Source: Methanocaldococcus sp. 28A (GTDB lineage Archaea; AGJL01; Methanococci; Methanococcales; Methanocaldococcaceae). From it: a stretch of DNA of 10,393 bases. This document shows positions 1-10,393 of the stretch, one piece after another. Made by a program: the position numbers and the translations under genes. Every line of letters starts with the position of its first letter. Position 1 is the stretch's first letter. The notes beneath the pieces are model-generated. The model was not told where the DNA came from. It saw nothing but the letters and a program-made list of their open reading frames with translations, and searched no databases. The stretch lies in assembly GCA_049852185.1 (NCBI GenBank), contig CP187541.1; one strand, written 5' to 3'.

Positions 1-444
1 ACTTATGAGATAATCATTTATGGGAGGGTCCAACATGTTGGGTTTAGGGATAGGATAGAAAATATAGGCAGAGGTTTAGGTATTAGTGGAATAATATATA
101 ACTATAAGGATGGGACAGTTAGGATATTAGCAAACTTTGATTCAGAAAGGAAGAAAAAACTATTCAAGGAATTTATTAAGGAACTTGAAGATGTAGATAA
201 CCTTATAAAAATAGAGAGGATTGAAGAGAGAGAACTAAATACATACATTGAATTTCCAGAGGGGATTAATAGAATATCAGCAGATGATTTAATAGAGCTA
301 AATAAAAAGTTGGATGAAGGAGTGAAGTATATTAAGTTTATATTTGGGGAGTTAGAGGAACATAAAAAGATTTTAATTGAGATAAAAGACACGCTATATG
401 AAATAAAGGAAATTCTTAAAAATAACAGCAATGCACAAAAATAA
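1..444 (+). CDS. Acylphosphatase-like protein with C-terminal coiled coil (copy 1, first 3 codons cut by the window edge)
   Basis: Same sequence as 3897-4340. Reads [16 protein letters not shown]...KNNSNAQK with stop TAA at 442-444. Confidence 0.88.
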
Positions 445-474
445 TACTTGTATGGTAATCAAACTGGATATAAG

Positions 475-500
475 TTTCTTTTCTTGCTTAAGCAAATTTT
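475..500 (+). terminator. Candidate T-rich terminator after the acylphosphatase-like gene, overlapping the 12-bp palindrome TTGCTTAAGCAA (484-495)
   Basis: TTTCTTTTCTT lies 30 nt after the stop codon, and archaeal intrinsic terminators are oligo-T tracts. A T8 run at 658-665 is an alternative candidate. Confidence 0.35.
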
Positions 501-541
501 CTCTCAAAACTTGTTAAAAAATCGCTTAATATCAGTTGTAG

Positions 542-575
542 ATAGTGATGTAATTAAATCAATTGATATTGATAG
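542..575 (+). repeat. 34-bp direct repeat, intergenic copy (ATAGTGATGTAATTAAATCAATTGATATTGATAG)
   Basis: Exact match to 1235-1268, or 37/38 if extended by 4 nt. Contains the palindrome ATCAATTGAT (558-567). Recurs at 4438-4471 and 8334-8367. Confidence 0.93.
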
Positions 576-675
576 TATAATTATGATATCACACAATTTT
601 AGAAACTTAAGTTTCCAAAGAAATTTTGTTTTAAAAAAGCTAAAACGGTTCTAGTTGTTTTTTTTGATGTAAATC

Positions 676-694
676 TTAAAGTAAACTACTTTAA
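676..694. repeat. Perfect 8-3-8 inverted repeat TTAAAGTA-AAC-TACTTTAA
   Basis: Seen directly. The function is unknown, though it is operator-like. Confidence 0.6.
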
Positions 695-846
695 ATTGAT
701 TATTATAATTTTTCCAGCTCTGCCTTTCAATTTCTTAATTAATTTAATCCCTCTTTTAAAGATATTAAAACAACCAACTAACTGTCTATTAAAATACTTT
801 TTACAATTAGAGCAATATCTTACTTATATTATAAACCTTTTGGGTT

Positions 847-863
847 AATAAAAACCTATAAAT
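847..863 (+). promoter_or_regulatory. Candidate archaeal promoter for mcm (A-rich BRE-like run plus TATAAA at 857-862)
   Basis: AATAAAAACCTATAAAT would place the start site near 885-890, at the foot of the leader hairpin. An alternative TATA-like sequence is TTATATTATAAA at 824-835. The region is AT-rich, so specificity is low. Confidence 0.35.
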
Positions 864-895
864 GTATGTAACTGTCAATAGCATTAAGTTGGGAA

Positions 896-932
896 AGGTA
901 GGGGGTGCCTCTAAGAGGCCAGCCCCCTACCT
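896..932. promoter_or_regulatory. GC-rich stem-loop upstream of mcm
   Basis: AGGTAGGGGG (896-905) pairs with CCCCCTACCT (923-932). The inner stem is GCCTC-TAA-GAGGC (907-919). It can be extended by AGTTGG (887-892) pairing with CTAACT (933-938). It is the only GC-rich island in the intergenic region. Recurs at 4792-4828 and 8688-8724. Confidence 0.8.
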
Positions 933-952
933 CTAACTAAAAACAAAGTATT

Positions 953-959
953 GGAGGTG
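953..959 (+). promoter_or_regulatory. Ribosome-binding site GGAGGTG for mcm
   Basis: Strong archaeal-type Shine-Dalgarno sequence 7 nt before ATG 967, which supports this start codon. Confidence 0.8.
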
Positions 960-966
960 TAAGGCA

Positions 967-3849
967 ATGAATAATATTAGTCCAAATAATATAAATACTT
1001 CACTAAATATCAGTTCCAAATACTCAAATGTAGAAATAAATCCAATATTGAAAGCAAACATTAAAGCTCTTTTGGAATTCCTAAAAGCTAAATTTAACAA
1101 TTCCATTGACTTAGAGAAAGCTGAAAAATTTGCATATAACAGAGGTTTAATAGATGAAAAAGGACACCTCACTGAAAAAGGTATGGAAATTTTAACAGTC
1201 TTATTCAGGTTGTTTCCAGACATTGATTTTACAAATAGTGATGTAATTAAATCAATTGATATTGATAGCATACTTAGAAAGTTAGAGACCCTATCCCAAA
1301 ATTCCACTTCTGGAAATGAGTGTTGCCAACAGGAGCCAACAGTTGCCAACTTTGAAACTGAGTATAAATCGTTTGCCAACTTTGAAAAAGACGTGCCAAC
1401 TTTTGCCAACTTTGAAAATAAGATGCCAATAGTTGCCAACAACGAATTGGCAAAAGTTGGCATTGCCAACAACGAATTGGCAAAAGTTGGCATTGCCAAC
1501 AATACTATGATAAATATGACAAATATGGATGATGTGTTATGTGTTATACTCAATAAGTTCGATATCTTAAAAGAAGATATTAGAAAATTAGCAAATGAAA
1601 TTAGAAAAGAAAAGAAAATTAGTAAGACTTTCGGCAAATCTTCCTTTTATGACATAATGAAATGGTTATTAACAGATAAATGCGTTGATACTCGATATAT
1701 TGCTGAGAATATAAAGAATCTAAACGCTTCATTGGGTTCCTACAAAGCAGATTTAGCATACCTCAACAAAATAGGATGGATATATGAGGATTTAGATGGG
1801 TTATATAAGTTGAATGTTGAGAAATTTTTATCAGATTTAGAGAGAGCAGGATTGATAAACAAGTTGCATTATGAAAGGGAGTTAGAGAATGCTTCATATA
1901 ATGAGATATGGGACCTTGACCAAAAGTATTACAGTTTAAATGTTGATGAGAATGGGGTTTTTAAGTTTGAATTTGGAGATAAAACACTGGAACAATATTA
2001 TTTGTCCTCAATGATATTAAATGAAACAAAAGTATTGATTAATAGGCTACAAAAAGAGTATTTTAAGAATTGGAGAAAAGAAAATTTAAAAGAAATTGTT
2101 GATTGTGAAGATGATACTTTATTGTTTCCGTTAATAAAGTGTCACTTTACGAATATTCCAATATCTGCGACTGAATGTATCCAATATCCAGACCCTTCAA
2201 AGGTTGGAAAACTTGTGGTTGTAGAGGCGGAGATATTAGAGGCAACACCAATAAAGAACATAGTAATTTGTGGAGAGTATTCAGAATATTTAGATGATGA
2301 CGAGCCACATATAGAATATTTTGACTTGAACACCAAGAAAATTCCAGAAACAATAAAGATTAAGACAGAAGATGGAGTAAAAGAGCTAAAATTAATTAGA
2401 AAATACATTCATACTGTTCAAGAGTTCCTACTACAACAGCCAATCGATGAATTAAACCCTAAAGAAGAGCCTAAGCCAATAAAGGGAGTGTGGATAGGAG
2501 CTGAAGGATTGTTTGATATAGGGGCCAAGGTAAGAATTGTTGGAATTTTGGACATCGATAAAAGTGATAGACCTATATCTCCTTATGTAATAAGAATTTT
2601 GCGAATTGAGGAGATAGAAGAGTTTTCTTATGGTCTTAGTGAGGAAGATATTAAAATAGCCAAAGAGTACTATGAGAGCAGAGGCGGAGATTTATTTAAG
2701 ATAGCAGATGATTTGCTCCCTAACATTATAGGTAATAAGCTGTTGAAAGTTGCTATATTGTTGCAGTTATGTAATGTGGAATCAGAGCCGAGAGATGGCT
2801 TTAATTGGAATCTACATATATTACTTGTCGGGGACCCTTCAACAGGAAAATCAAGAATTCTGAAGAGAGTTTATAATCTCTTCCCAAATAACCAATATGT
2901 TGATTTAACTAATGCGACACAAGCGGGTTTAGTTGGAGCAATGGAGGCAGTAAAAGGATACTTGGGGGAAGTGTATACCTTCAAAAGAGGAGCAATGCCA
3001 AAGGCTAATGGAGCAGTGTTATGCTTAGATGAGAAAGGAAATAAGGACACTTACAAATATTTTAACACATCTATGGAGGATGGATTTACAACGGTCAAGA
3101 AAAGAGGAAGAGATATAAAATTAAAAACAAATTGTGCTTATTTGTGGGCGTGCAATCCAAAGAAGGAAAAATTTGATTTGGATAAAACGATAACAGAGCA
3201 AATAGATATTCCAGAGTCAATATTATCAAGGTTTGATATTGTGGTTGCATTATTCAACCAATCGAAGGAACTAAATGAGATTGAGGATATTATAGATGCA
3301 ATTTTAGGAGAGGGCGAAAAAGATAAGGTAGATGATGATGTTTTAAGAAGATATATTTTGTATGCGAGAACCTTTAATCCGAAGATACCTAAAGAAATTA
3401 GGAAAGAAATTGCCAAATACTATCATCAATTACAAGGGAAGAGTTACTTAATGGATGCGAGAGTCGTAAAATCATTGTTAAAGCTAGTTAGGGCTATTGC
3501 AAAAGCACACTTAAGAAATGAAGTTATGAAAGAAGATTTTGAACTTGCAAAGAAAATATACCAAATGTATTTAGACACTGTCTTATACGACCCGGAAAGT
3601 GGAGTATATGACTTTGGAAAATTAGGAAAAGCTACGAAATCAGAAAGAGAAAAAATGGATAAAATAGTTGAGATAATAAAAGAGATTGCTAAAGATAGGG
3701 CTGACAACTTAGTTCCACAAACAGAGATTGAAGAGAAAGCTAAAGAGATGTTAGGAATTGATGAGAATGAAGTGGAAAGATTATTAAAGAAACTTGAAAA
3801 GATTGGCGAAATTCATGAGCCAAGAGCTGGCATATGGGGAGTATTATAA
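967..3849 (+). CDS. mcm: MCM-family AAA+ helicase with long N-terminal extension, putative plasmid replication protein (960 aa)
   Basis: Walker [14 protein letters not shown] (GDPSTGKS at 2830-2853), Walker B VLCLDE (3016-3033), sensor 1 WACNPK, arginine finger LSRFD (SRFD at 3226-3237), sensor 2-like [13 protein letters not shown]-fold motifs [11 protein letters not shown] / QEFLLQQP / [10 protein letters not shown], and C-terminal winged helix [17 protein letters not shown]. Confidence 0.95.
1235..1268 (+). repeat. 34-bp direct repeat, copy inside mcm (encodes [11 protein letters not shown])
   Basis: Exact match to 542-575, 693 bp upstream. Recurs at 5131-5164 and 9027-9060. Confidence 0.93.
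1321..1500. repeat. Array of (TT)GCCAAC boxes inside mcm, iteron-like
   Basis: GCCAAC ends at 1330, 1340, 1350, 1380, 1400, 1410, 1440, 1470 and 1500, with GCCAAT ending at 1430. Inverted TTGGCA copies start at 1447, 1457, 1477 and 1487. There is an exact 30-bp duplication (1441-1470 and 1471-1500) and three copies of TTGCCAACTTTGAAA. Recurs at 5217-5396 and 9113-9292. Confidence 0.92.
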
Positions 3850-3877
3850 TATTGGCTTATTACAAAAATATTAATCA

Positions 3878-3883
3878 AGGTGA
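3878..3883 (+). promoter_or_regulatory. Ribosome-binding site AGGTGA for the acylphosphatase-like gene
   Basis: AGGTGA-AACT-ATG is the typical methanococcal RBS arrangement and supports ATG 3888 over ATG 3834. Confidence 0.8.
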
Positions 3884-3887
3884 AACT

Positions 3888-4340
3888 ATGGCAACGACTT
3901 ATGAGATAATCATTTATGGGAGGGTCCAACATGTTGGGTTTAGGGATAGGATAGAAAATATAGGCAGAGGTTTAGGTATTAGTGGAATAATATATAACTA
4001 TAAGGATGGGACAGTTAGGATATTAGCAAACTTTGATTCAGAAAGGAAGAAAAAACTATTCAAGGAATTTATTAAGGAACTTGAAGATGTAGATAACCTT
4101 ATAAAAATAGAGAGGATTGAAGAGAGAGAACTAAATACATACATTGAATTTCCAGAGGGGATTAATAGAATATCAGCAGATGATTTAATAGAGCTAAATA
4201 AAAAGTTGGATGAAGGAGTGAAGTATATTAAGTTTATATTTGGGGAGTTAGAGGAACATAAAAAGATTTTAATTGAGATAAAAGACACGCTATATGAAAT
4301 AAAGGAAATTCTTAAAAATAACAGCAATGCACAAAAATAA
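3888..4340 (+). CDS. Acylphosphatase-like protein with C-terminal coiled coil (150 aa, copy 2)
   Basis: [10 protein letters not shown] resembles the acylphosphatase signature GxVQGVGFR, and NYKDGTV matches NxxDGxV, so the Arg and Asn are retained. The tail [40 protein letters not shown] is heptad-like. The start was moved from 3834 to 3888 on RBS evidence. Confidence 0.88.
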
Positions 4341-4862
4341 TACTTGTATGGTAATCAAACTGGATATAAGTTTCTTTTCTTGCTTAAGCAAATTTTCTCT
4401 CAAAACTTGTTAAAAAATCGCTTAATATCAGTTGTAGATAGTGATGTAATTAAATCAATTGATATTGATAGTATAATTATGATATCACACAATTTTAGAA
4501 ACTTAAGTTTCCAAAGAAATTTTGTTTTAAAAAAGCTAAAACGGTTCTAGTTGTTTTTTTTGATGTAAATCTTAAAGTAAACTACTTTAAATTGATTATT
4601 ATAATTTTTCCAGCTCTGCCTTTCAATTTCTTAATTAATTTAATCCCTCTTTTAAAGATATTAAAACAACCAACTAACTGTCTATTAAAATACTTTTTAC
4701 AATTAGAGCAATATCTTACTTATATTATAAACCTTTTGGGTTAATAAAAACCTATAAATGTATGTAACTGTCAATAGCATTAAGTTGGGAAAGGTAGGGG
4801 GTGCCTCTAAGAGGCCAGCCCCCTACCTCTAACTAAAAACAAAGTATTGGAGGTGTAAGGCA

Positions 4863-7745
4863 ATGAATAATATTAGTCCAAATAATATAAATACTTCACT
4901 AAATATCAGTTCCAAATACTCAAATGTAGAAATAAATCCAATATTGAAAGCAAACATTAAAGCTCTTTTGGAATTCCTAAAAGCTAAATTTAACAATTCC
5001 ATTGACTTAGAGAAAGCTGAAAAATTTGCATATAACAGAGGTTTAATAGATGAAAAAGGACACCTCACTGAAAAAGGTATGGAAATTTTAACAGTCTTAT
5101 TCAGGTTGTTTCCAGACATTGATTTTACAAATAGTGATGTAATTAAATCAATTGATATTGATAGCATACTTAGAAAGTTAGAGACCCTATCCCAAAATTC
5201 CACTTCTGGAAATGAGTGTTGCCAACAGGAGCCAACAGTTGCCAACTTTGAAACTGAGTATAAATCGTTTGCCAACTTTGAAAAAGACGTGCCAACTTTT
5301 GCCAACTTTGAAAATAAGATGCCAATAGTTGCCAACAACGAATTGGCAAAAGTTGGCATTGCCAACAACGAATTGGCAAAAGTTGGCATTGCCAACAATA
5401 CTATGATAAATATGACAAATATGGATGATGTGTTATGTGTTATACTCAATAAGTTCGATATCTTAAAAGAAGATATTAGAAAATTAGCAAATGAAATTAG
5501 AAAAGAAAAGAAAATTAGTAAGACTTTCGGCAAATCTTCCTTTTATGACATAATGAAATGGTTATTAACAGATAAATGCGTTGATACTCGATATATTGCT
5601 GAGAATATAAAGAATCTAAACGCTTCATTGGGTTCCTACAAAGCAGATTTAGCATACCTCAACAAAATAGGATGGATATATGAGGATTTAGATGGGTTAT
5701 ATAAGTTGAATGTTGAGAAATTTTTATCAGATTTAGAGAGAGCAGGATTGATAAACAAGTTGCATTATGAAAGGGAGTTAGAGAATGCTTCATATAATGA
5801 GATATGGGACCTTGACCAAAAGTATTACAGTTTAAATGTTGATGAGAATGGGGTTTTTAAGTTTGAATTTGGAGATAAAACACTGGAACAATATTATTTG
5901 TCCTCAATGATATTAAATGAAACAAAAGTATTGATTAATAGGCTACAAAAAGAGTATTTTAAGAATTGGAGAAAAGAAAATTTAAAAGAAATTGTTGATT
6001 GTGAAGATGATACTTTATTGTTTCCGTTAATAAAGTGTCACTTTACGAATATTCCAATATCTGCGACTGAATGTATCCAATATCCAGACCCTTCAAAGGT
6101 TGGAAAACTTGTGGTTGTAGAGGCGGAGATATTAGAGGCAACACCAATAAAGAACATAGTAATTTGTGGAGAGTATTCAGAATATTTAGATGATGACGAG
6201 CCACATATAGAATATTTTGACTTGAACACCAAGAAAATTCCAGAAACAATAAAGATTAAGACAGAAGATGGAGTAAAAGAGCTAAAATTAATTAGAAAAT
6301 ACATTCATACTGTTCAAGAGTTCCTACTACAACAGCCAATCGATGAATTAAACCCTAAAGAAGAGCCTAAGCCAATAAAGGGAGTGTGGATAGGAGCTGA
6401 AGGATTGTTTGATATAGGGGCCAAGGTAAGAATTGTTGGAATTTTGGACATCGATAAAAGTGATAGACCTATATCTCCTTATGTAATAAGAATTTTGCGA
6501 ATTGAGGAGATAGAAGAGTTTTCTTATGGTCTTAGTGAGGAAGATATTAAAATAGCCAAAGAGTACTATGAGAGCAGAGGCGGAGATTTATTTAAGATAG
6601 CAGATGATTTGCTCCCTAACATTATAGGTAATAAGCTGTTGAAAGTTGCTATATTGTTGCAGTTATGTAATGTGGAATCAGAGCCGAGAGATGGCTTTAA
6701 TTGGAATCTACATATATTACTTGTCGGGGACCCTTCAACAGGAAAATCAAGAATTCTGAAGAGAGTTTATAATCTCTTCCCAAATAACCAATATGTTGAT
6801 TTAACTAATGCGACACAAGCGGGTTTAGTTGGAGCAATGGAGGCAGTAAAAGGATACTTGGGGGAAGTGTATACCTTCAAAAGAGGAGCAATGCCAAAGG
6901 CTAATGGAGCAGTGTTATGCTTAGATGAGAAAGGAAATAAGGACACTTACAAATATTTTAACACATCTATGGAGGATGGATTTACAACGGTCAAGAAAAG
7001 AGGAAGAGATATAAAATTAAAAACAAATTGTGCTTATTTGTGGGCGTGCAATCCAAAGAAGGAAAAATTTGATTTGGATAAAACGATAACAGAGCAAATA
7101 GATATTCCAGAGTCAATATTATCAAGGTTTGATATTGTGGTTGCATTATTCAACCAATCGAAGGAACTAAATGAGATTGAGGATATTATAGATGCAATTT
7201 TAGGAGAGGGCGAAAAAGATAAGGTAGATGATGATGTTTTAAGAAGATATATTTTGTATGCGAGAACCTTTAATCCGAAGATACCTAAAGAAATTAGGAA
7301 AGAAATTGCCAAATACTATCATCAATTACAAGGGAAGAGTTACTTAATGGATGCGAGAGTCGTAAAATCATTGTTAAAGCTAGTTAGGGCTATTGCAAAA
7401 GCACACTTAAGAAATGAAGTTATGAAAGAAGATTTTGAACTTGCAAAGAAAATATACCAAATGTATTTAGACACTGTCTTATACGACCCGGAAAGTGGAG
7501 TATATGACTTTGGAAAATTAGGAAAAGCTACGAAATCAGAAAGAGAAAAAATGGATAAAATAGTTGAGATAATAAAAGAGATTGCTAAAGATAGGGCTGA
7601 CAACTTAGTTCCACAAACAGAGATTGAAGAGAAAGCTAAAGAGATGTTAGGAATTGATGAGAATGAAGTGGAAAGATTATTAAAGAAACTTGAAAAGATT
7701 GGCGAAATTCATGAGCCAAGAGCTGGCATATGGGGAGTATTATAA
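4863..7745 (+). CDS. mcm: MCM-family helicase, putative replication protein (copy 2)
   Basis: Translation identical to 967-3849. Confidence 0.95.
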
Positions 7746-7783
7746 TATTGGCTTATTACAAAAATATTAATCAAGGTGAAACT

Positions 7784-8236
7784 ATGGCAACGACTTATGA
7801 GATAATCATTTATGGGAGGGTCCAACATGTTGGGTTTAGGGATAGGATAGAAAATATAGGCAGAGGTTTAGGTATTAGTGGAATAATATATAACTATAAG
7901 GATGGGACAGTTAGGATATTAGCAAACTTTGATTCAGAAAGGAAGAAAAAACTATTCAAGGAATTTATTAAGGAACTTGAAGATGTAGATAACCTTATAA
8001 AAATAGAGAGGATTGAAGAGAGAGAACTAAATACATACATTGAATTTCCAGAGGGGATTAATAGAATATCAGCAGATGATTTAATAGAGCTAAATAAAAA
8101 GTTGGATGAAGGAGTGAAGTATATTAAGTTTATATTTGGGGAGTTAGAGGAACATAAAAAGATTTTAATTGAGATAAAAGACACGCTATATGAAATAAAG
8201 GAAATTCTTAAAAATAACAGCAATGCACAAAAATAA
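7784..8236 (+). CDS. Acylphosphatase-like protein with C-terminal coiled coil (copy 3)
   Basis: Identical to 3888-4340. Confidence 0.88.
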
Positions 8237-8758
8237 TACTTGTATGGTAATCAAACTGGATATAAGTTTCTTTTCTTGCTTAAGCAAATTTTCTCTCAAA
8301 ACTTGTTAAAAAATCGCTTAATATCAGTTGTAGATAGTGATGTAATTAAATCAATTGATATTGATAGTATAATTATGATATCACACAATTTTAGAAACTT
8401 AAGTTTCCAAAGAAATTTTGTTTTAAAAAAGCTAAAACGGTTCTAGTTGTTTTTTTTGATGTAAATCTTAAAGTAAACTACTTTAAATTGATTATTATAA
8501 TTTTTCCAGCTCTGCCTTTCAATTTCTTAATTAATTTAATCCCTCTTTTAAAGATATTAAAACAACCAACTAACTGTCTATTAAAATACTTTTTACAATT
8601 AGAGCAATATCTTACTTATATTATAAACCTTTTGGGTTAATAAAAACCTATAAATGTATGTAACTGTCAATAGCATTAAGTTGGGAAAGGTAGGGGGTGC
8701 CTCTAAGAGGCCAGCCCCCTACCTCTAACTAAAAACAAAGTATTGGAGGTGTAAGGCA

Positions 8759-10393
8759 ATGAATAATATTAGTCCAAATAATATAAATACTTCACTAAAT
8801 ATCAGTTCCAAATACTCAAATGTAGAAATAAATCCAATATTGAAAGCAAACATTAAAGCTCTTTTGGAATTCCTAAAAGCTAAATTTAACAATTCCATTG
8901 ACTTAGAGAAAGCTGAAAAATTTGCATATAACAGAGGTTTAATAGATGAAAAAGGACACCTCACTGAAAAAGGTATGGAAATTTTAACAGTCTTATTCAG
9001 GTTGTTTCCAGACATTGATTTTACAAATAGTGATGTAATTAAATCAATTGATATTGATAGCATACTTAGAAAGTTAGAGACCCTATCCCAAAATTCCACT
9101 TCTGGAAATGAGTGTTGCCAACAGGAGCCAACAGTTGCCAACTTTGAAACTGAGTATAAATCGTTTGCCAACTTTGAAAAAGACGTGCCAACTTTTGCCA
9201 ACTTTGAAAATAAGATGCCAATAGTTGCCAACAACGAATTGGCAAAAGTTGGCATTGCCAACAACGAATTGGCAAAAGTTGGCATTGCCAACAATACTAT
9301 GATAAATATGACAAATATGGATGATGTGTTATGTGTTATACTCAATAAGTTCGATATCTTAAAAGAAGATATTAGAAAATTAGCAAATGAAATTAGAAAA
9401 GAAAAGAAAATTAGTAAGACTTTCGGCAAATCTTCCTTTTATGACATAATGAAATGGTTATTAACAGATAAATGCGTTGATACTCGATATATTGCTGAGA
9501 ATATAAAGAATCTAAACGCTTCATTGGGTTCCTACAAAGCAGATTTAGCATACCTCAACAAAATAGGATGGATATATGAGGATTTAGATGGGTTATATAA
9601 GTTGAATGTTGAGAAATTTTTATCAGATTTAGAGAGAGCAGGATTGATAAACAAGTTGCATTATGAAAGGGAGTTAGAGAATGCTTCATATAATGAGATA
9701 TGGGACCTTGACCAAAAGTATTACAGTTTAAATGTTGATGAGAATGGGGTTTTTAAGTTTGAATTTGGAGATAAAACACTGGAACAATATTATTTGTCCT
9801 CAATGATATTAAATGAAACAAAAGTATTGATTAATAGGCTACAAAAAGAGTATTTTAAGAATTGGAGAAAAGAAAATTTAAAAGAAATTGTTGATTGTGA
9901 AGATGATACTTTATTGTTTCCGTTAATAAAGTGTCACTTTACGAATATTCCAATATCTGCGACTGAATGTATCCAATATCCAGACCCTTCAAAGGTTGGA
10001 AAACTTGTGGTTGTAGAGGCGGAGATATTAGAGGCAACACCAATAAAGAACATAGTAATTTGTGGAGAGTATTCAGAATATTTAGATGATGACGAGCCAC
10101 ATATAGAATATTTTGACTTGAACACCAAGAAAATTCCAGAAACAATAAAGATTAAGACAGAAGATGGAGTAAAAGAGCTAAAATTAATTAGAAAATACAT
10201 TCATACTGTTCAAGAGTTCCTACTACAACAGCCAATCGATGAATTAAACCCTAAAGAAGAGCCTAAGCCAATAAAGGGAGTGTGGATAGGAGCTGAAGGA
10301 TTGTTTGATATAGGGGCCAAGGTAAGAATTGTTGGAATTTTGGACATCGATAAAAGTGATAGACCTATATCTCCTTATGTAATAAGAATTTTG
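8759..10393 (+). CDS. mcm: MCM-family helicase (copy 3, truncated by the window end)
   Basis: ATGAATAATATT at 8759, and the sequence matches 967-2601 up to the window edge. It is missing from the ORF track because no stop codon is reached. Confidence 0.93.
   Translation, partial: MNNISPNNINTSLNISSKYSNVEINPILKANIKALLEFLKAKFNNSIDLEKAEKFAYNRGLIDEKGHLTEKGMEILTVLFRLFPDIDFTNSDVIKSIDIDSILRKLETLSQNSTSGNECCQQEPTVANFETEYKSFANFEKDVPTFANFENKMPIVANNELAKVGIANNELAKVGIANNTMINMTNMDDVLCVILNKFDILKEDIRKLANEIRKEKKISKTFGKSSFYDIMKWLLTDKCVDTRYIAENIKNLNASLGSYKADLAYLNKIGWIYEDLDGLYKLNVEKFLSDLERAGLINKLHYERELENASYNEIWDLDQKYYSLNVDENGVFKFEFGDKTLEQYYLSSMILNETKVLINRLQKEYFKNWRKENLKEIVDCEDDTLLFPLIKCHFTNIPISATECIQYPDPSKVGKLVVVEAEILEATPIKNIVICGEYSEYLDDDEPHIEYFDLNTKKIPETIKIKTEDGVKELKLIRKYIHTVQEFLLQQPIDELNPKEEPKPIKGVWIGAEGLFDIGAKVRIVGILDIDKSDRPISPYVIRIL

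Follow-up and report, generated by a model that had tools for sequence, protein, structure and literature searches.

A two-gene MCM plasmid of Methanocaldococcus with a repeat array inside its replication gene

The 3,896-bp unit, its genes and its relatives

We analyzed contig CP187541.1 of Methanocaldococcus sp. 28A (assembly GCA_049852185.1), a stretch of 10,393 bp that we refer to as the window. It is the complete second contig (C2) of a two-contig genome whose first contig, C1, measures 1,545,598 bp, and it consists of head-to-tail copies of a small unit carrying one long gene for a replication protein from the family called minichromosome maintenance (MCM) and one short gene for an acylphosphatase-like protein. 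When the window was shifted against itself by 3,896 bp, there were 0 mismatches at 6,497 of 6,497 comparable positions; each of the other shifts between 3,800 and 4,000 bp gave at least 100 mismatches. The perfect 3,896-bp period claimed in a preliminary description of this DNA was therefore borne out, and the copies, when compared, proved identical. They occupy positions 1-3896, 3897-7792 and 7793-10393 (the concatemer is assigned to no strand), which amounts to 2.668 copies (10,393/3,896; two full units plus 2,601 bp). All coordinates are those of the window, and features lie on its plus strand unless stated otherwise.

The unit has a GC content of 31.7%. Its first open reading frame (ORF), at 967-3849, recurs at 4863-7745 and, truncated where the contig stops, at 8759-10393; it has 2,883 nt and encodes a 960-aa protein that we call Rep/MCM. 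It fills 74.0% of the unit, in agreement with the earlier estimate that 74% of the unit is one MCM gene. The second ORF encodes the acylphosphatase-like protein of 150-168 aa, depending on the start codon (3834/3888-4340), and about 520 bp (445-966) are non-coding. We scanned 12 translated stretches of the window with Pfam, including every antisense ORF of at least 59 aa. No primase, rolling-circle Rep, Orc1/Cdc6 or integrase was found in them, nor any partition, toxin-antitoxin or recombinase/resolution family; the HUH Rep gene that marks rolling-circle plasmids was likewise absent. The replication and maintenance gene classes that had been listed as missing are thus missing from these stretches.

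The C-terminal part of Rep/MCM is an MCM core, as judged by Pfam and by alignment to a known structure. The Pfam MCM P-loop family matched with an E-value of 5.5e-38 (130.7 bits against a cut-off of 23.3) and the MCM lid with 7e-13 (49.3 bits against 27.4), together with a weak match to the archaeal winged-helix (WH) family. Residues 392-953 aligned to residues 102-685 of the Sulfolobus solfataricus MCM structure 4fdg (E 4e-49). The Walker A motif GDPSTGKS, Walker B CLDE, sensor-1 N730 and arginine finger SRFD, all aligned to SsoMCM, were invariant in a 7-sequence alignment. Two elements of 4fdg are lacking in the window MCM: subdomain A, as the alignment begins at chain residue 102, and the zinc finger, as the CPKCGK of 4fdg aligns to residues without cysteines. 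This gene has no copy in the chromosome; the host's own MCM genes are 32-33% identical to it.

In place of subdomain A, Rep/MCM has an N-terminus of approximately 390 aa that is private to the MCMs of its family. Residues 1-420 matched five of 1.84 billion representative proteins, of which three are family MCMs (P0006, P0009 and P0010), while the remaining two are short (189 and 199 aa) and cover parts of the module; PHROGs contained no family for the N-terminal 310 aa. In an AlphaFold2 (AF2) model of the N-terminus, built from 9 sequences, two blocks were predicted to fold: D1, residues 23-111, with a predicted local distance difference test score (pLDDT) of 64-89, and D2, residues 186-309, with 85-96. 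The linker between them (112-185) was predicted to be disordered (pLDDT 23-37). The modeled D2 has the element order helix-strand-helix-helix-hairpin, as in a winged helix. In a fold search with VIA-align all 50 matches listed mapped to D2 (Z 5.3-7.6), so that D1 was barely probed; they include eS19, ST1889, members of the MarR, ArsR and Fur families, TFE-alpha and the winged-helix domain of Rpa2. Going by their entry titles, we take most of these to be nucleic-acid-binding proteins of the winged-helix type. Based on Pfam, the alignment to 4fdg, AF2 and VIA-align, the layout of Rep/MCM would therefore be D1 (~23-111), linker (112-185), winged-helix-like D2 (186-309) and, from ~392, the MCM OB-fold, AAA+, lid and WH domains.

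Among deposited sequences the nearest is a circular plasmid of 4,704 bp from Methanocaldococcus vulcanius M7, pMETVU02 (NC_013409.1), whose annotation comprises two genes, one for a 948-aa MCM and one for a hypothetical protein of 151 aa. The two MCMs are 65.5% identical over 946 aa, and their genes are ~72% identical as DNA. A collection of 5.8 billion proteins yielded six relatives including pMETVU02 (47-66% identity, on contigs of 4.3-6.0 kb), and ten metagenome loci were retrieved. One of these loci, L014, has a terminal overlap of 127 nt and therefore closes as a 5,016-bp circle. A member of this family would be expected to be a free circle of ~4-6 kb, and a perfect 3,896-bp period without flanking DNA fits a circle. 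Among 40 species genomes of the order, the N-terminal module occurred in two, the host and the genome with a 4,704-bp contig. A search of genome contigs with the single protein and an alignment search of viral contigs returned no relative.

The window plasmid is thus a new member, and the smallest, of the existing, little-studied pMETVU02 family. The description of it as a stripped-down, two-gene MCM replicon stands: PLSDB contains 25 plasmids with an MCM match (E ≤ 1e-10), the smallest being pMETVU02 with 4,704 bp and the next 12,197 bp, so that a unit of 3,896 bp would be the smallest MCM plasmid there. Its claim to novelty holds in part. No near-identical characterized plasmid was found, the closest record having 72% DNA identity, but the kind was already represented by pMETVU02, which has the same architecture, and by five further relatives.

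A 2010 paper on archaeal MCM evolution by Krupovic et al. reportedly may mention pMETVU02. Our search of ~8.4 million full texts returned no paper that names this plasmid, the only relative on deposit; the passages on Methanococcales plasmids that it returned concern pMETVU01 and the pT26-2 family (for the latter, PMC6972569). A like search on Methanocaldococcus lauensis gave unrelated work only.

A comparison with CRISPR spacers, one of the checks named in the preliminary description, yielded one match: in the congeneric genome G014, a 35-nt spacer agrees with 2036-2070, within the MCM gene, at 32 of 35 nucleotides, and is evidence for mobile-element behavior of the plasmid. Environmental contigs of one study, a swarm of relatives mostly at 90-99% identity and with high word depth, are further evidence of this kind. 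A further ten short matches from sister genomes were rejected as spacers as they had no adjoining CRISPR repeats. A simple scan of host contig C1 found 16 CRISPR arrays with two repeat types and 116 spacers, none of which matches the plasmid (best partial matches 17/19 and 16/18).

Repetition of the unit in the deposited record

The preliminary description had called the cause of the repetition undecidable from the window alone. The evidence leans to one side. In our judgment it is quite probable that the 10,393-bp contig is an assembler over-run around a 3,896-bp circle, the circularity and monomer size of which we infer. This explanation is favored because the copies are identical, the copy number is not an integer and there is no unique flanking DNA. 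It is also consistent with a contig of G014 (G014:C3, the third contig; 13,123 bp = 2 x 6,562 - 1) that holds two copies of a 6,562-bp plasmid, with a period that was perfect over 2,438 positions checked in locus L037 (1-9000 of the 13,123 bp). Small plasmids of the genus have therefore been deposited doubled before.

The protein annotation points in the same direction. The 692-aa protein on record for the contig corresponds to ORF 8759-10393 (545 aa) continued into 1-444 (147 aa), and is thus a fragment of the MCM fused to the acylphosphatase-like protein between ...VIRIL and TYEII.... As this fusion spans the end-to-start joint, the gene caller must have assumed a circle of 10,393 bp, which makes the fusion protein an artefact of the false joint. 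This has a practical side: the length of the 10.4-kb entry is very probably overstated by a factor of 2.67, and a chimeric protein results from it; the sister genome G014 shows a like duplication.

Against an over-run, chromosome contig C1 has no terminal overlap, so the assembly was otherwise trimmed properly. As for reads, four sequencing runs from one study each contain 8-12% of the window's sampled 31-mers, and the contigs of these runs are relatives only, at >99% to <90% identity. The joint from 3895 to 1 that occurs in these contigs merely restates the boundary of the unit. No sequencing run in our search had half of the window's words, and there was no RNA run among those listed.

One other possibility is that the plasmid forms real multimers, head-to-tail oligomers of the 3.9-kb unit, part of which was captured by a long read or by the assembly. 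The scanned stretches contain no recombinase or resolution gene, as would suit a plasmid without a resolvase, and the sister-genome plasmid is present in almost exactly two copies. However, 2.668 is not a whole number, and the contig is therefore no complete circular multimer, while the identity of the copies suits an over-run just as well. We regard multimers as unlikely. Very unlikely is a true circle of 10,393 bp made of two full units and one with a 1,295-bp deletion, bearing a chimeric MCM-acylphosphatase gene. The recorded gene call does cross the contig ends, and the frame is open across the joint; but the joint falls at an arbitrary point within the MCM OB-fold region and is supported by the contig ends alone, and three copies with zero divergence would hardly last as 3.9-kb direct repeats. 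A tandem amplification in the chromosome or a larger replicon, for which nothing specific speaks, is likewise very unlikely, as the contig has no unique flank, the chromosome lacks this MCM (best chromosomal matches 32-33% identity) and the closest relatives are free small plasmids.

A probable iteron array in the linker-coding DNA

The DNA encoding the linker of Rep/MCM contains a repeat array at 1324-1500 (codons 120-178; copies at 5220-5396 and 9116-9292), defined by word counts, by reading frames and spacing, and by a 30-bp period in Tandem Repeats Finder. Within 177 bp there are 10 exact occurrences of TGCCAAC, eight on the plus strand and two inverted. In 5,396 bp the word matched 20 times where 0.36 matches were expected, and it occurs nowhere else in the unit, including the intergenic region. 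The start-to-start spacing of the forward copies is 20, 30, 20, 10, 30, 30 and 30 bp. Each of the inverted copies pairs with a forward one, which gives 15-bp palindromes, GTTGGCATTGCCAAC, at 1456-1470 and 1486-1500. The word occurs in all three reading frames (0, 1 and 2) as well as inverted, and so encodes CQ, AN, VPT or VG. It is therefore the DNA word and not a peptide that is conserved, and the repeats appear to be DNA sites (iterons).

Five further arrays were found in relatives, at the same codons (~117-180), with a near-identical series of spacings and a terminal palindrome, each with its own word. The word is TATTAAC in pMETVU02, TACCAAC in L012 and L015a, TAACAAC in L014 and TGCTACT in L015b, whose Rep has no BLASTP similarity to the window MCM. 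Between plasmids, copies in differing frames and orientations have changed together, for example from GCC to ATT, ACC or AAC. Judged from these alignments, such concerted change would point to selection for a common binding protein rather than to slippage of a repeat unit.

The array could also be a fast-evolving, low-complexity peptide linker produced by replication slippage and without any role as DNA. The linker is predicted to be disordered, as this would require, and the number of repeats varies between near-identical plasmids: L012 and P0004 differ in the array by exactly one 10-aa repeat (10 codons). On the other hand, a single 7-mer in three frames and in inverted orientation encodes different residues, and the differently framed copies changed together. 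Slippage alone is therefore quite improbable as the explanation.

Which part of the protein might recognize the iterons? In pMETVU02 and L014, whose words differ, D1 agrees to 97% but D2 to only 61%; in L012 and L015a, which have the same word, D2 agrees to 84%. In these five related plasmids the iteron word thus appears to follow D2 rather than D1.

The array adjoins an AT-rich tract at 1503-1621 (26.7% and then 16.7% GC) that contains 9-nt and 7-nt tandem repeats and is a candidate unwinding element. A tract of this kind also follows the array in four of five relatives, at 18-25% GC; in L015b the corresponding DNA has 30% GC as compared to 32% for the contig. The plasmid therefore shows the hallmark of an iteron replicon, clustered and helically phased direct repeats next to an AT-rich tract (1503-1621, 17-27% GC), and the origin probably lies inside the replication gene. 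A literature search on iterons, MCM and archaeal plasmids gave nothing on in-gene iterons among the works listed.

We put forward the following explanation as the likely one for the window as a whole: an over-run 3,896-bp circle that is a theta-type replicon of the pMETVU02 family, with a proposed initiator-helicase and an in-gene origin. The circular plasmid would reside in a Methanocaldococcus-like host and would depend on a single large protein serving as both initiator and helicase, in which D1, the disordered linker and the winged-helix-like D2 precede the MCM core. The DNA coding for the linker would provide ten TGCCAAC sites, phased in multiples of ~10 bp, and then the AT-rich tract. 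Rep/MCM would bind its own iterons, probably through D2, melt the adjoining AT-rich DNA and load itself as an MCM ring, after which host primase and polymerases would complete replication. From one promoter near 855, both genes would probably be transcribed as a single mRNA of ~3.5 kb with a stable, conserved hairpin at its start. The acylphosphatase-like gene would be a passenger common to host chromosomes and other mobile elements. In its strongest form the proposal describes an archaeal replicon complete in itself, with a single polypeptide that acts as MCM helicase and as the initiator binding the origin, and with that origin located in the polypeptide's own linker-coding DNA; we put the chances of this at about even.

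The main competing possibility is that the TGCCAAC array consists of Rep sites for autoregulation, copy control or incompatibility and that the origin lies in the AT-rich intergenic DNA at 445-966, perhaps with the conserved hairpin as a single-strand priming signal. The 60-nt windows of lowest GC are intergenic (652-711, 15%; 551-610, 16.7%) and do not follow the iterons, so that the origin could be located there with the in-gene sites acting in copy control. The region also holds palindromes and the hairpin, which is common to plasmids with at least three unrelated Rep types. Furthermore, pMETVU02 has extra iteron-like copies at intergenic positions 164-212, and the GGGAACC iterons of the M. 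lauensis plasmid pI lie outside its rep gene. Against this, all 10 exact sites of the window plasmid are in the gene and none is intergenic. The AT-rich tract lies directly 3' of the array here and in four of five relatives, as it does in lambda gene O according to the passages of PMC7466680 on that origin. We regard an intergenic origin as a serious, though less probable, alternative.

In addition to the position of the lowest-GC windows, five points count against an initiator-helicase with an in-gene origin. The link between D2 and the iteron word comes from five related plasmids and could be explained by their physical adjacency alone. The VIA-align Z scores of 5.3-7.6 fall in the range that the tool rates as common and not decisive, and Foldseek found no match to the N-terminal model in the PDB at E ≤ 0.001. 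The NCBIfam model for cellular MCM, NF040949, scored 222 bits, below its cut-off of 940. Finally, the full-length AF2 model was poor (mean pLDDT 50.5) and unusable.

Two features are new: the MCM of this family has a private 390-aa N-terminus with two predicted folded domains and a linker encoded by an iteron array, and the hairpin that precedes the gene stays paired from one relative to the next. Hardly anything has been described of small archaeal plasmids whose replication relies on an MCM and not on a rolling-circle Rep or a primase-polymerase. A unit of 3.9 kb leaves a single protein, a single iteron array and non-coding DNA of ~520 bp as what is essential. Should the origin consist of the in-gene iterons, this would be a compact system for studying the targeting and loading of an MCM ring without Orc1/Cdc6. 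The specificities of origin and initiator would in that case be passed on jointly and could diversify together, giving rise to incompatibility types, and the family would be a natural source of compatible origin/initiator pairs for shuttle vectors in hyperthermophilic methanogens. The 3.9-kb plasmid would then represent the smallest such replicon in nature, ready for use as the backbone of a replicating Methanocaldococcus vector.

Flanking features, related plasmids and known systems

A GC-rich hairpin at 887-946, repeated at 4783-4842 and at 8679-8738, precedes the start codon of rep by 20-80 nt. As RNA it has a minimum free energy of -35.3 kcal/mol (z -3.2). In an alignment of 7 sequences its 17 pairs were paired in 98.3% of cells, two of them with compensatory changes; when the partner strand was slid by one column, pairing fell to ~66%. 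The hairpin is present in pMETVU02, L012-L015, M. lauensis pI and G014:C3, where it forms a third variant, GGTAGAGGGG...CCCCTCTACC, and it thus accompanies at least three unrelated Rep proteins. We infer that it forms the 5' end of the rep mRNA and acts in stability or translational control. A promoter-like stretch at 821-879 contains the TATA-like sequence CCTATAAATG at 855-864, ~25-30 nt before the hairpin; it matches C1:638777 and C1:1071924 at 78-82%, both just upstream of gene starts, and may function as a promoter. A scan for sigma-70 promoters and intrinsic terminators, a model unsuited to archaea, gave scores no better than those of shuffled sequences. A Shine-Dalgarno-like GGAGGTG precedes rep at 953-959.

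The minus strand at 707-817 carries a remnant of ~36 codons from the C-terminus of an IS605-family TnpB, which the preliminary description had overlooked. It matches six chromosomal places at 84-91% DNA identity, with TnpB matches at C1:352251, 632491, 1077740 and 1519326. The chromosomal TnpB ORF matches the Pfam families OrfB_IS605 and Cas12f1-like_TNB, and full and partial copies are scattered in the chromosome. The remnant therefore attests to a past insertion and deletion; it overlaps the part of tnpB that in known elements also encodes the guide-RNA scaffold. We considered 715-817 as a CRISPR leader and rejected it, as the chromosomal matches are TnpB genes and not flanks of arrays.

Another trace of rearrangement is a 42-nt piece of MCM-coding sequence at 542-583 in the intergenic region, a second copy of which lies at 1235-1276 (95% identity, 34 nt exact). 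Its frame with respect to a 68-codon TTG ORF (448-654) is the same. None of six relatives examined has this repeat; as it is private to the window plasmid, we take it as a recombination scar. A palindrome containing GAAACTTAAGTTTC, assigned to no strand, lies at 598-619 in the AT-rich intergenic DNA, and its surroundings (604-638 of the unit) match pI 687-656 at 86%. In the unit and four chromosomal loci, Rfam (E ≤ 1) returned only a sub-threshold match to a miRNA model on the palindromic iterons. No tRNA was found.

The acylphosphatase-like gene occupies 3888-4340, with a copy at 7784-8236 and a partial one at 1-444. Pfam PF00708 (Acylphosphatase) matched residues 23-104 of the 168-aa reading with 50.4 bits (cut-off 22.5; E 2.7e-13), and none of the NCBIfam equivalogs for acylphosphatase passed (best 41.1 bits, cut-off 86). 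The longer ORF runs from 3834, and the start is likely to be the ATG at 3888, which gives 150 aa, has AGGTGA 7 nt upstream and agrees with the start of the chromosomal homologue. The protein has a C-terminal helical tail of ~60 aa, and the positions that we take to be the catalytic Arg and Asn are present (FRD, YNYKDG).

The chromosome encodes a paralogue at C1:1471501-1471950 (L004:1401-1868, minus strand) next to an HD-domain gene, with 83% identity by MAFFT and 79% by tblastn. In this paralogue, Ile replaces the FRD Arg that is kept in the plasmid and in pMEFER01; on the strength of this substitution, the paralogues may differ in activity. Identity to the acylphosphatase-like gene of pMEFER01 is 66-70%. 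DNA like the 5' part of the gene (window 1-450) occurs in 12 of 16 other genomes of the genus, several of which have two to four copies. We regard the gene as an exchangeable passenger.

The relatives of the plasmid vary in how the replication gene is put together. L015, a metagenome contig of which 9,836 of 9,933 bp were examined, looks as if two related plasmids had fused into a co-integrate: a block of 1.48 kb occurs twice at a distance of 5,323 bp (97.4% identity), one copy leading into a family MCM split in two ORFs and the other into an intact 950-aa Rep of the G014:C3 type with an in-gene TGCTACT array (10 copies). In L018 (339-3097), L019 and L021, one ORF encodes the N-terminal module (199-220 aa) and a second, overlapping one the MCM part (710 aa); the break comes after a lysine-rich stretch, where L016 and L017 read through. 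The two-ORF rep of this subclade may be a true split or a programmed frameshift. At L020:1490-2740 the D1-iteron-linker-D2 module is joined to a different C-terminal part containing IAIEQPELHLHP, which resembles an ABC/OLD-type ATPase motif. This may reflect a module that can move from one motor protein to another, or else a chimeric contig.

pMETVU02 resembles the window plasmid in having two genes, the N-terminal module and the upstream hairpin, and in carrying a repeat array within its MCM gene at the same codons. It differs in being 808 bp larger, in its iteron (TATTAAC as compared to TGCCAAC), in its additional iteron-like copies at intergenic 164-212 and in its second gene, a DUF5418-like 151-aa ORF on the opposite strand in place of the acylphosphatase-like gene. 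M. lauensis pI (5,142 bp) and the 6,562-bp unit of G014:C3 are small plasmids of the same genus with the same hairpin and a very large rep. In contrast, the pI Rep has at most a C-terminal winged-helix similarity of 31 aa to the window MCM, and its iterons, 10 copies of GGGAACC/GGTTCCC at 4403-4735 (L010), are clustered outside and just downstream of the 1,076-aa rep. G014:C3 encodes an unrelated 1,049-aa Rep, with a weak C-terminal alignment to the window MCM (26% over 142 aa, E 0.003) and none at E ≤ 1e-3, and an additional primase-like gene whose product scored 26.0 bits with Pfam DNA_primase_S, just under the cut-off of 26.8.

pMEFER01, a 22-kb plasmid that passages of PMC6972569 place in the pT26-2 family, shares with the window plasmid the host genus, an MCM and an acylphosphatase-like gene (70% protein identity). 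The traits given there for pT26-2, an integrase and conserved core genes, were not found in the window plasmid, which has two genes only. The MCM of pMEFER01 is 33.5% identical and lacks the N-terminal module, and this plasmid has an integrase and ~34 genes.

Origins inside an initiator gene are also found in bacterial RepA_N plasmids and phage SPP1. In SV40 large T, papillomavirus E1 and pRN1 ORF904, one protein combines origin recognition with a hexameric AAA+ helicase. These are SF3 helicases, however, and ORF904 has a primase-polymerase, whereas Rep/MCM has an MCM core and no primase domain by Pfam. The arrangement in lambdoid phages is similar in that iterons and an AT-rich tract lie inside the initiator's own gene: in passages of PMC7466680 they are placed in the middle of gene O, and added iterons lengthen the protein. 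Lambda O, on the other hand, is an initiator only and recruits a separate helicase via P; in the pMETVU02 family the unrelated Rep/MCM would be initiator and helicase fused in one protein.

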